Positions 42,821-44,052 of a stretch of DNA of 64,000 nt are shown here, one piece after another (within the stretch, counting starts at the first letter, position 1; the number at the start of each line of letters is the position of its first letter). Made by a program: the position numbers and the translations under genes. Location: positions 11,692 through 75,691 of the forward strand of contig JAUNJM010000003.1 in the NCBI GenBank assembly GCA_030533265.1, in the 5' to 3' direction. A model generated the notes under the pieces. It was not told the DNA's origin. It worked only from the letters and a program-made list of their open reading frames with translations, and did not search any database. The stretch is from Ruminococcus sp. (GTDB taxonomy: Bacteria; Bacillota; Clostridia; Oscillospirales; Ruminococcaceae).

Positions 42821-42906
42821 GCAGAAGTGGCGGAATGGCAGACGCGCTGGCTTCAGGTGCCAGTGGCAGCAATGTCGTGTGGGTTCAAGTCCCATCTTCT
42901 GCACCA
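42821..42906 (+). tRNA. tRNA-Leu(CAG)
   Basis: GCAGAAGTGGCGGAATGGCAGACGC...TTCAGGT...long variable arm...GGTTCAAGTCC...CCA. Confidence 0.97.
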
Positions 42907-42949
42907 AAAAAGAAGTAACTTTTGGTAGACAAAAGTTACTTCTTTTTTT
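42907..42949 (+). terminator. Long hairpin terminator after tRNA-Leu
   Basis: AAAAGAAGTAACTTTTG/CAAAAGTTACTTCTTTT. Confidence 0.85.
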
Positions 42950-43094
42950 ATCCAAGCCGCAGGCTTGGCATATCATCACGCGTCAGCGTGTATATCATCG
43001 CCGTAGGCGCATATCATCAGCCGAAGGCTGTATTACCTGCAGCTTGATGAGATGCAACACTGCGTGTTGATGATATACAAGGCTTCGCCTTGAT
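42950..43094. repeat. Two-fold symmetric array of six variable hairpins joined by a constant YATATCAT linker
   Basis: Four top-strand hairpins (loops GCA, GTCA, GTA, GAA) and two bottom-strand hairpins (GCA, GAA); three linkers on top and two on the bottom strand. Confidence 0.9.
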
Positions 43095-43139
43095 TTGTTT
43101 GTGGAAAAGTAGTATAATTCTCTTGAAAGGAGTGGTTAT

Positions 43140-43488
43140 ATGCCGAAAAATTATTTGCTGATATATTCTGAGCAGCTTGCAACTGAAATTGAATTGCTTT
43201 GTCAAAGCATTAAGGCCCCGTCTAACACTCTTTTCCAAATTCGTAAAAAGTTCAAGCAGTATTTATGCAAATATCCGTGAAGCAAATTATGGACAGAGTA
43301 AAGCGGATATGCTTTCAAAATTTGAAATTGCTCTTAAGGAATGTAGCGAAACCGAAGGTTGGTTACGTTTATTGTTCAATACGAATGCGATTGATGAAGA
43401 AATCTATAAAAAGCATAGAAATCTTTGCGGTCGAATCAGACGAATGTTGATTGCAAGTTGTAAAACATTAAAGGAGAGTATAAAATGA
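43140..43488 (+). pseudogene. Four-helix-bundle protein (23S rRNA IVP / Avd-like family) with +1 frameshift in the A5 run at 43245-43249
   Basis: AGGAG RBS, MPKNYLL...QIRK|SSSSIYANIREANYGQSKADMLSKFEIALKECSETEGWLRLL; matches the family pattern Q..RS..SI.ANI.E....S..DF..K..IA.KE..ET..WL. Confidence 0.85.
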
Positions 43489-43856
43489 AACGAATTATTT
43501 GTTTTTTGATTTGCTTGTTGATGCTATTTTCATTCGTAGGTTGTGATTCCGATACAACCCCTGTTCTTTCCGGCAGTTATTATGCTGTTGGCGATTATGA
43601 AGAAATGTTAACGCCGTATCTGTCGCTTGATACAGATAACAATGAGTTTCGTTTTGGTGCCGGTTCTGCACTTTCTTATCAGGAATATGGCTCTTATAAA
43701 ATTGCAGACGGAAAGATTATTGCCACTTCACAAAGCACAACATTTGAATTTGAGATTAAGGATAAGAACACCCTTATATTGATTGACAATGGGGATAATG
43801 ACTTTTTTAAAATTCCTATCAATACGCAGTTTGTATATAGTGAAGATTTGAAGTAA
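43485..43856 (+). CDS. Hypothetical lipoprotein (cargo of the tRNA-Leu module)
   Basis: MKRIICFLICLLMLFSFVGC lipobox; AAGGAG RBS; overlaps the upstream stop. Confidence 0.75.
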   Translation: MKRIICFLICLLMLFSFVGCDSDTTPVLSGSYYAVGDYEEMLTPYLSLDTDNNEFRFGAGSALSYQEYGSYKIADGKIIATSQSTTFEFEIKDKNTLILIDNGDNDFFKIPINTQFVYSEDLK

Positions 43857-43914
43857 TTACATTATTTTTAGTCGTTCTTACCCCTGCTTACACTACTTTT
43901 AGTCGCTCTCTCGC

Positions 43915-43955
43915 AAAAAAAGTAGGAAGTACCAAAGGTGCTTCCTACTTTTTTT
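43915..43955. terminator. Bidirectional terminator closing the module
   Basis: A7-GTAGGAAGTACC/GGTGCTTCCTAC-T7. Confidence 0.85.
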
Positions 43956-44052
43956 ATGTAATAAAAATCCCTAAAATCTACGTTCTTAAAATTAATTTAT
44001 TGTAAAACTATAACGTAACCTCGTTCGGCTATCCTATCTTCTGTTGTTTTTT

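Follow-up and report, generated by a model that had tools for sequence, protein, structure and literature searches.

A two-armed array of hairpins and constant linkers behind tRNA-Leu in Ruminococcus sp.: a member of a repeat family of gut Clostridia and a candidate single-stranded-DNA cis element

Introduction

The closest known family to the sequence described here is Gut-1 of Rfam (RF01706), a one-armed candidate sRNA seen in human gut metagenomes only and reported without context or function (Weinberg et al. 2010, PMC2864571). Gut-1 consists of short GC-rich hairpins with loops of three to five bases and a constant linker of 7-8 nt between them. It has been present in Rfam since 2010 and has acquired neither an organism, nor a context, nor a function in that time. 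Our search of the literature on the motif, and on hairpins arranged in tandem close to tRNAs, turned up nothing beyond the 2010 catalogue entry.

Two further strands of earlier work are relevant. The intervening sequence (IVS) of 23S rRNA is a small, selfish, folded element that sits at a stable-RNA gene and carries a gene of the PF05635 family (Coxiella; PMC4990558), and Avd of DGRs is homologous to that same family (PMC10053308). Loops of the C-GNA-G and C-GNNA-G types form hyperstable DNA mini-hairpins (PMC13037366, PMC3201870).

The window, the whole stretch of DNA that was analysed, comprises 64,000 nucleotides of a Ruminococcus sp. genome (GenBank assembly GCA_030533265.1, contig JAUNJM010000003.1, positions 11,692 to 75,691). 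An earlier note, made from the letters alone, drew attention to six perfect hairpins of differing sequence, joined by a nearly constant 8-nt linker and arranged as two inverted arms. It took them for a platform acting on single-stranded or cruciform DNA, or for a structured RNA. Here we describe the array, its surroundings and its relatives, and assess what it might do.

Results and discussion

Architecture of the array

The features of the locus are given in Table 1. On direct re-reading the hairpins, their coordinates and the linkers all match the earlier note. The placement of the array between tRNA-Leu and a four-helix-bundle (4HB) gene is likewise confirmed, the tRNA by ARAGORN and the gene by its assignment to PF05635 / TIGR02436.

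Table 1. Features in and around the array (window coordinates).
Feature	Position	Strand	Description
tRNA-Leu(CAG)	42821..42906	+	ARAGORN; Rfam tRNA 54.6 bits
Terminator-type hairpin	42907..42949	bidirectional	A5, 19-bp hairpin, T7, directly after CCA
H1	42952-68	+	CCAAGCC / GGCTTGG stem, loop GCA; 5' arm and loop complementary to centre
L1 linker	42969-76	+	left arm
H2	42977-90	+	loop GTCA
L2 linker	42991-98	+	left arm
H3	42999-43009	+	loop GTA
L3 linker	43010-17	+	left arm
H4	43018-30	+	loop GAA
Left arm	42969..43030	+	three times YATATCAT linker then hairpin (H2-H4)
Centre	43031-46	+	16 nt, between H4 and R1
R1 linker	43047-54		right arm
H5	43055-69		right arm
R2 linker	43070-77		right arm
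H6	43078-92		right arm
Right arm	43047..43092	-	two linkers, each followed by a hairpin (H5, H6); GNA loops on the - strand
Outward promoter	43090..43118	+	TTGATT-17-TATAAT, 10/12 matches; -35 overlaps H6 3' arm
4HB gene	43140..43488	+	PF05635 / TIGR02436; preceded by ribosome-binding site
Cargo gene	43485..43856	+	123-aa lipoprotein-like ORF; ATG overlaps 4HB stop (ATGA)
Cassette tail	43897..43915	+	resembles tRNA-Leu 3' end without CCA, degenerate (...TCTCTCGCA)
Second terminator-type hairpin	43915..43958		A7, hairpin, T7AT; outside shared cassette; -20 kcal/mol, z = -6.4

The left-arm linkers, in order CATATCAT, TATATCAT and CATATCAT, separate H1 to H4. On the + strand ATGAGATG precedes H5 and ATGATATA precedes H6; these right-arm linkers are the complement of the left-arm YATATCAT. 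All loops are GNA, with the exception of one GTCA, closed by C-G, on the strand that reads YATATCAT. The window contains 13 occurrences of the word ATATCATC, where 2.7 would be expected, and four of the 13 fall within the array stretch. Folding of the array as DNA gives z = -6.3 relative to shuffled sequences, folding as RNA gives -5.3 and -6.4 for the two strands, and in both cases 0 of 200 shuffles were equally good.

A cassette of about 1 kb

A horizontally transferred cassette of roughly 1 kb has the array as its non-coding front module. It runs in the order own terminator, hairpin-linker array, outward promoter, 4HB gene and swappable cargo gene. A contig from a genome of another family (G474) matches the window from the contig's first base, located inside H1, to 43923. 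Homology stops just past the tRNA-Leu-like tail, and the cassette therefore extends from 42907 to about 43915. Past the tail the window and G474 each have their own A-run, hairpin and T-run terminator; that of the window (43915-43958) may be the tRNA's former terminator.

In the 823 nt that follow the array, the window and G474 are 97.3% identical; within the array the figure is 72%, and whole units are replaced or missing. The cassette was transferred recently, and the array turns over much faster than the rest. The 72% applies to window positions 42954-43092 against positions 1-173 of locus L185, where the exchange and loss of hairpin units look as if units had been shuffled between arrays through the linkers.

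Inspection of ORFs and Pfam searches revealed no recombinase, transposase or reverse transcriptase gene in the cassette, and there is no integrase ORF within 42907-43958. The sequence predicted for an empty junction was searched as an exact pattern in metagenome contigs and gave no match. Genomes of the same genus retain QueT and tRNA-Leu with downstream sequence that differs in each; a pair of empty and filled sites from within the genus was considered and discarded, the protein identity of about 60% being too distant for a clean pair.

Docking at tRNA genes

The docking point of the cassette is the CCA end of tRNA-Leu, at 42906. Synteny with genomes of the same genus breaks at 42906-42919, which is the end of the tRNA or a few bases past it. 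Does this hold for related arrays? Among 94 arrays parsed from uncultured herbivore-gut Clostridia the 3' end of a tRNA or tmRNA aims at the array in 49, with the first linker 52-67 nt away, and these docked genes represent 14 tRNA identities plus tmRNA. In none of the 94 does a tRNA point away from the array.

The hairpin directly after the tRNA has a folding energy of -22.4 kcal/mol on the + strand and -21.4 kcal/mol on the - strand (z about -7), and was not listed by a simple terminator scan. The same hairpin occurs behind different tRNAs in other genomes, so this terminator belongs to the element. Its loop reads GTAGA here and in one relative, and the reverse complement TCTAC in most copies with the same stem. 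This corresponds to a flip/flop of the palindrome loop, and metagenome contigs carry both forms; one such contig shows an 'opposite strands' joint at 42908/42947.

At the other end of the array relatives keep the same arrangement of the promoter, with the -35 provided by the last hairpin. No promoter-like site facing into the array from the right was found within about 400 nt. The simple terminator scan flagged H6 together with ATTTGTTTGT (43078-43102) as terminator-like on the + strand, and the same bases also supply the promoter -35.

At L172 a direct repeat of 20 nt, derived from the 3' end of the tRNA there, flanks the copy and is followed by a second terminator, which is an insertion signature. 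Direct repeats of the tRNA end are clear in 1 of about 50 tRNA-linked copies; as a general border of the element they were rejected, being found in only one or two copies. A search of the window with the 18-nt tRNA end, allowing up to three mismatches, found no second copy.

Two other kinds of sequence at such sites were observed. Behind the orthologous tRNA-Leu, L047, L049, L050 and L054, all of the same genus, carry inserts of about 100-190 nt which share GGAGCAAAATGCAGACTTGAAGCC or a close variant. The inserts of L047 and L050 terminate with a repeated tRNA 3' end, and in L049 and L054 this repeat is degenerate. They represent a separate small element that docks at the tRNA and has no hairpin array. 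In L003, L005, L040, L042 and L076 a conserved module of ~60 nt with a T-loop-like GGTTCGAATTC lies to the right of the array. In L003 and L005 it ends ...CATAG(C/A)CA before the next A-run and terminator, separating tandem arrays. The module may be a pseudo-tRNA 3' end that serves as the next docking site.

Distribution of the family

When the genome (1.41 Mb, 83% complete) was scanned for clusters of linkers and of GC-rich hairpins, no array other than this one came up, and a repeat dispersed through this genome was rejected. Other genomes hold the array in multiple copies. Related arrays were detected in seven of 60 relatives, where a genome has as many as 18 matches and in many cases the match lies at the end of a contig, and in none of the 26 same-genus genomes searched. 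A three-linker pattern matched 48 of 401 genomes of the order, while a reversed control pattern gave no matches. In public genomes the three-linker pattern identified more than 120 loci, nearly all in uncultured Clostridia from the guts of ruminants and other herbivores, with genomes assembled from gut metagenomes, chiefly of ruminants.

The family statistics derive from 94 distinct two-armed arrays. The modal array has three left and three right linkers, and the right arm in the window is one unit below this number. The typical layout is terminator, array and outward promoter, often followed by the PF05635 4HB gene, and the smallest units of the family are only about 270 bp. A sister type with the arms in reverse polarity exists, and one-armed arrays of five to eight units with a single polarity also occur (L147, L149, L139, L151 and L142). 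The L149 array is placed directly upstream of a ribosome-binding site and may for that reason lie in a 5' untranslated region. The array in the window is one member of a large repeat family of uncultured herbivore-gut Clostridia, and the superfamily includes Gut-1.

Selection on hairpins and strands

Of the 309 inter-linker slots, 283 are filled by a perfect hairpin, whose stem averages 6 bp. There are 39 distinct stems in the left arm and 33 in the right, and the hairpins differ within one array. Five hairpins of the class CA-NNN-C...G-NNN-TG lack complementarity; the other 104 are complementary and comprise 12 stem types. The units between linkers are kept as hairpins through compensatory change, and the view that structure is conserved over sequence is substantiated by these 104 of 109. 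The constancy of the linker is upheld as well, since the 8 nt are kept as sequence across related arrays.

These observations bear on one alternative, that the array is a passive by-product, a decaying and functionless remnant kept only through recent transfer. The copy in the window is certainly worn. It has two right-arm units, a mismatch between H1 and the centre and a frameshift in the 4HB gene, and it is the only copy in this genome. However, its six hairpins are all still perfect, and neutral decay would erase both the compensatory change that keeps hairpins perfect across the family and the mirrored strand bias described below. We regard a functionless remnant as very unlikely.

The two arms differ in the strand on which the favoured loop is found. 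On the tRNA-sense strand the left arms have 67 G..A loops and six T..C, the right arms one and 91 (Fisher p = 7e-38). Non-Watson-Crick pairs, compared as G.T against A.C, number 16:5 in left arms and 1:6 in right arms (p = 0.007). A mutational strand bias cannot flip within 100 nt, and so the arms are selected as folded single strands, on opposite strands. The strand-symmetric grammar noticed in one array thus extends to the family, and the single-stranded DNA that had been guessed at agrees with loop polarity and G.T wobbles that fit single strands, opposite in each arm.

The centre and the linkers

The earlier note mentions a centre of 16 nt. It is no neutral spacer: positions 43036-43046 are the reverse complement of 42953-42963, in the 5' arm and loop of H1. 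The match is 10 of 11, with a C.A mismatch at 42958/43041, and in most relatives the same complementarity is 11 of 11. Over the family the longest complement between H1 and centre has a mean of 10.2 nt, compared to 4.25 nt in cross-class controls. Across at least nine covarying sequence classes, a change in H1 goes with a change in the centre.

L192 and L193, two orthologous arrays which a single genus carries behind the same tRNA, provide a direct comparison. The terminator, H1 and the centre differ jointly, H4 and one right-arm hairpin differ as well, whilst H2, H3, the two other right-arm units and the promoter are identical.

The linkers behave differently. In 40 copies with 3+3 linkers covariation of left and right linkers was sought and none was found; in the nested register of these copies the C variant of the left linker is opposite T 27 times and opposite G twice. 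Minimum-free-energy folds draw a ladder of four-way junctions in which left and right linkers pair, with variable positions uncompensated, and the ladder is therefore unsupported as a conserved structure. The linkers are conserved as words rather than as a helix.

Could the words be read on the duplex? The array would then be a platform of double-stranded DNA, with linkers as operator or arm-type sites, comparable to lambda-type attP or iterons, that control the adjacent promoter or assemble a recombinase, and with hairpins as incidental spacers. The six to seven copies of an 8-bp word in two orientations beside the tRNA attachment point are compatible with this, as are the -35 embedded in the last unit, a linker variant that tracks the clade of the adjacent 4HB gene, and left and right linkers without helix covariation. 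The spacers, though, range from 11 to ~24 bp, so that the sites would be unphased on a duplex, they stay palindromic by compensatory change, and the strand-specific bias in loops and wobbles is not something that a pure duplex site imposes. We judge the duplex platform to be distinctly improbable, if somewhat less so than a functionless remnant.

The 4HB gene and its cargo

The 4HB gene in the window is frameshifted by an extra A in the run 43245-43249 (A5). Intact relatives have A4 there and most metagenome contigs have one base fewer at 43245; the frameshift reflects a true pseudogene or else an assembly error in the homopolymer. An intact relative scores 68.7 bits with PF05635 and 75.2 bits with TIGR02436, and the closest solved chain is 2rld. 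The 123-aa cargo ORF matches no Pfam family. At least 11 relatives carry a different cargo gene, its ATG again overlapping the 4HB stop.

Homologues of the 4HB protein are encoded in 180 of 401 genomes of the order. Those of clade 1, 82-100% identical to the query, have a YATATCAT array upstream in 21 of 22 loci. Those of clade 2, 63-67% identical, have an array with a different linker upstream in seven of seven. The match of linker and clade may reflect mere linkage. Of the 48 array-bearing genomes, 26, some with 7-10 pattern matches, yielded no clade-1 gene, although we caution that 'not found' should not be read as 'absent', because metagenome assemblies break at these repeats. A requirement for the 4HB protein in trans was rejected on the same count. 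Arrays occur in these 26 genomes with no cognate gene found, and the 4HB protein is therefore probably not required for array persistence.

Comparison with Gut-1

The earlier note called for comparison with Rfam and made its proposal depend on other covarying copies and on there being no full match to a catalogued family. There are many covarying copies, and the only catalogued match is Gut-1, below threshold. The score is 27.2 bits (E = 0.0015-0.013) on the minus strand, at 42987-43062, over the full length of the model. The gathering score is 50, so the window array is no Gut-1 member by Rfam's rule. Other Rfam matches (plastid psbA 3' UTR, miRNA precursors and snoRNAs) are far below their thresholds, lie on the terminator hairpin or on single units, and were dismissed.

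The alignment nevertheless maintains the hairpin-linker register throughout, with three hairpins and the constant linker in place. As a positive control, sister arrays in the cassette series at L040, L033 and L185 score 58.6-70.9 bits, above the gathering score, and a true Gut-1 match directly follows the G474 copy of the cassette. The families have the gut habitat in common and the same plan of small GC-rich hairpins with short loops and a constant linker, GUGAAAU in Gut-1 and AUGAUAU in the window. Unlike Gut-1 as described, the array is two-armed, situated behind tRNA genes and linked to a 4HB gene, and in the stretch that matches the Gut-1 model the strand under selection is complementary to that of the model.

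Is the array then a structured non-coding RNA of the Gut-1 type? It might serve, for example, as a protein sponge with the linkers as repeated single-stranded RNA sites; its transcription would start on the opposite side or be read-through of the tRNA gene. In addition to the Gut-1 scores, the tolerance of G.T on one strand of each arm is typical of RNA helices, and some one-armed arrays are just upstream of a ribosome-binding site. Contigs of three metatranscriptome runs cover the tRNA, array, 4HB gene and cargo gene and not the flanks. These contigs are strandless, the ratio of RNA to DNA depth is roughly constant at 0.1-0.2, and flanks would drop below assembly depth. Over the array this ratio equals that of the neighbouring genes, and the coverage by RNA libraries therefore speaks neither for nor against transcription. 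The favoured strand flips between arms, so no one transcript holds both in the selected sense. A hairpin of -22 kcal/mol and U7 stand between tRNA and array, the conserved promoter is downstream and directed outward with none directed inward, and the loops on the selected strand are of the DNA-type GNA/GNNA rather than GNRA/UNCG. A non-coding RNA is in our opinion unlikely.

Comparison with other elements

The array is neither a CRISPR, a plain terminator nor a classical REP, as had been stated. In CRISPR loci repeats of 23-50 nt alternate with unique, non-palindromic spacers, whereas here only 8 nt are constant and hairpins make up the variable parts.

There are similarities to REP, BIME and REPIN sequences, which are intergenic palindromes of alternating orientation, found behind terminators, likely folded as single-stranded DNA, multi-copy and non-autonomous. 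A REP has one conserved imperfect palindrome with a GTAG-type tetranucleotide. The array, in contrast, joins several different hairpins by a constant linker without a GTAG foot. It also has no flanking RAYT gene, targets tRNA 3' ends, and carries a promoter and often a 4HB gene.

A repeat of this kind could be spread by a Y1 HUH transposase, either RAYT or a TnpA relative of IS200/IS605. Hairpins of single-stranded-DNA type, inverted arms, an intergenic position behind terminators, multiple copies and the breaking of assemblies at those copies all accord with this idea, and PF01797 genes are present in five of five array-rich genomes and in this genome. They are present in three of five array-free genomes too, a distribution that does not discriminate the two groups. 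No PF01797 gene is in or beside the cassettes that were read, no GTAG-type tetranucleotide is conserved at the hairpin foot, it is the linker that is conserved and the hairpins that vary, and the strong preference for tRNA ends is foreign to REPs. We give little credence to a REP-like repeat.

With the IVS of 23S rRNA the cassette shares the PF05635 gene, the small size, the folded character and the location at a stable-RNA gene. That gene, also a mark of DGRs, is represented through the intact relative, the window copy being frameshifted. The location differs, as the array is beside a tRNA gene, behind its 3' end, and not inside an rRNA helix. No long inverted repeat surrounds the ORF and no excision by RNase III is implied. 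Unlike a DGR, the cassette has no reverse transcriptase ORF and no template or variable repeat.

Comparison with integrons is also informative. Their cassettes are small, serial and have swappable cargo, and attC is a cis site conserved in structure, probably single-stranded, with one strand preferred. In the present case compensatory changes give no support to pairing between the two arms, each cassette brings its own promoter and terminator, docking is at a tRNA 3' end, and among the ORFs within 42907-43958 no IntI-type integrase, and no attI, was seen. Islands and cis-mobilisable elements that target tRNAs resemble the family in insertion exactly at the tRNA 3' end, in tRNA-like tails and in tandem accretion. 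The difference is that the cassette encodes only the 4HB gene and a lipoprotein-like ORF, with no integrase inside the element, and that a single family uses at least 14 tRNA identities and tmRNA.

A single-stranded-DNA cis element?

The interpretation we prefer, though tentatively and at a little under an even chance, is that the array serves a non-autonomous, tRNA-docking cassette as a cis element in the form of single-stranded DNA; how it would do so is an inference. The array would act as DNA rather than as a transcript. On opening of the duplex, the strand with G..A loops would snap into very stable mini-hairpins, so that the variable parts are looped out and the constant linkers are left exposed as successive single-stranded sites. 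A sequence-specific protein, either the co-encoded 4HB protein or a recombinase or transposase provided in trans, would read the linkers. Two inverted arms may allow function whichever strand is exposed, for instance on the lagging-strand template. The module might help the cassette to insert at tRNA 3' ends, to be maintained there or to be rearranged, with terminator and promoter shielding neighbouring genes from the insertion.

DNA is preferred over RNA because the loops are of the stable DNA type and because a bidirectional terminator and an outward promoter bracket the array. That the hairpins are looped out is suggested by unit lengths that vary from 11 to ~24 nt while the linkers are constant.

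Several points count against a single-stranded-DNA element. Covariation cannot tell single-stranded DNA from RNA, and no recombinase gene is in the cassette or tied to arrays. Direct repeats of the tRNA end are rare, the predicted empty site was not found, and neither was the 4HB gene in 26 of 48 array-bearing genomes. Contigs from RNA libraries cover the array at the same ratio as elsewhere, and one-armed arrays upstream of a ribosome-binding site, such as L149, could be transcribed.

A broader proposal is that integrase-less cassettes docking at tRNAs, with a cis site of single-stranded-DNA mini-hairpins and a PF05635 partner, constitute a new class of element. We consider this rather doubtful, yet somewhat less so than the non-coding RNA. 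If true, PF05635 and Gut-1 would share a role in elements that home to stable-RNA genes.

Implications

To our knowledge PF05635 proteins are unexplained outside DGRs. The array family links them and Gut-1 at a defined address, the 3' ends of tRNA and tmRNA genes, in small cassettes that move between bacterial families with varied cargo genes. In the mirrored strand bias, function as folded single-stranded DNA has a concrete signature that can be tested. If the mechanism is worked out, it could reveal a new route of cassette insertion and reshuffling in gut Clostridia and could supply compact parts (terminator, insulator and promoter) for organisms that are hard to engineer.
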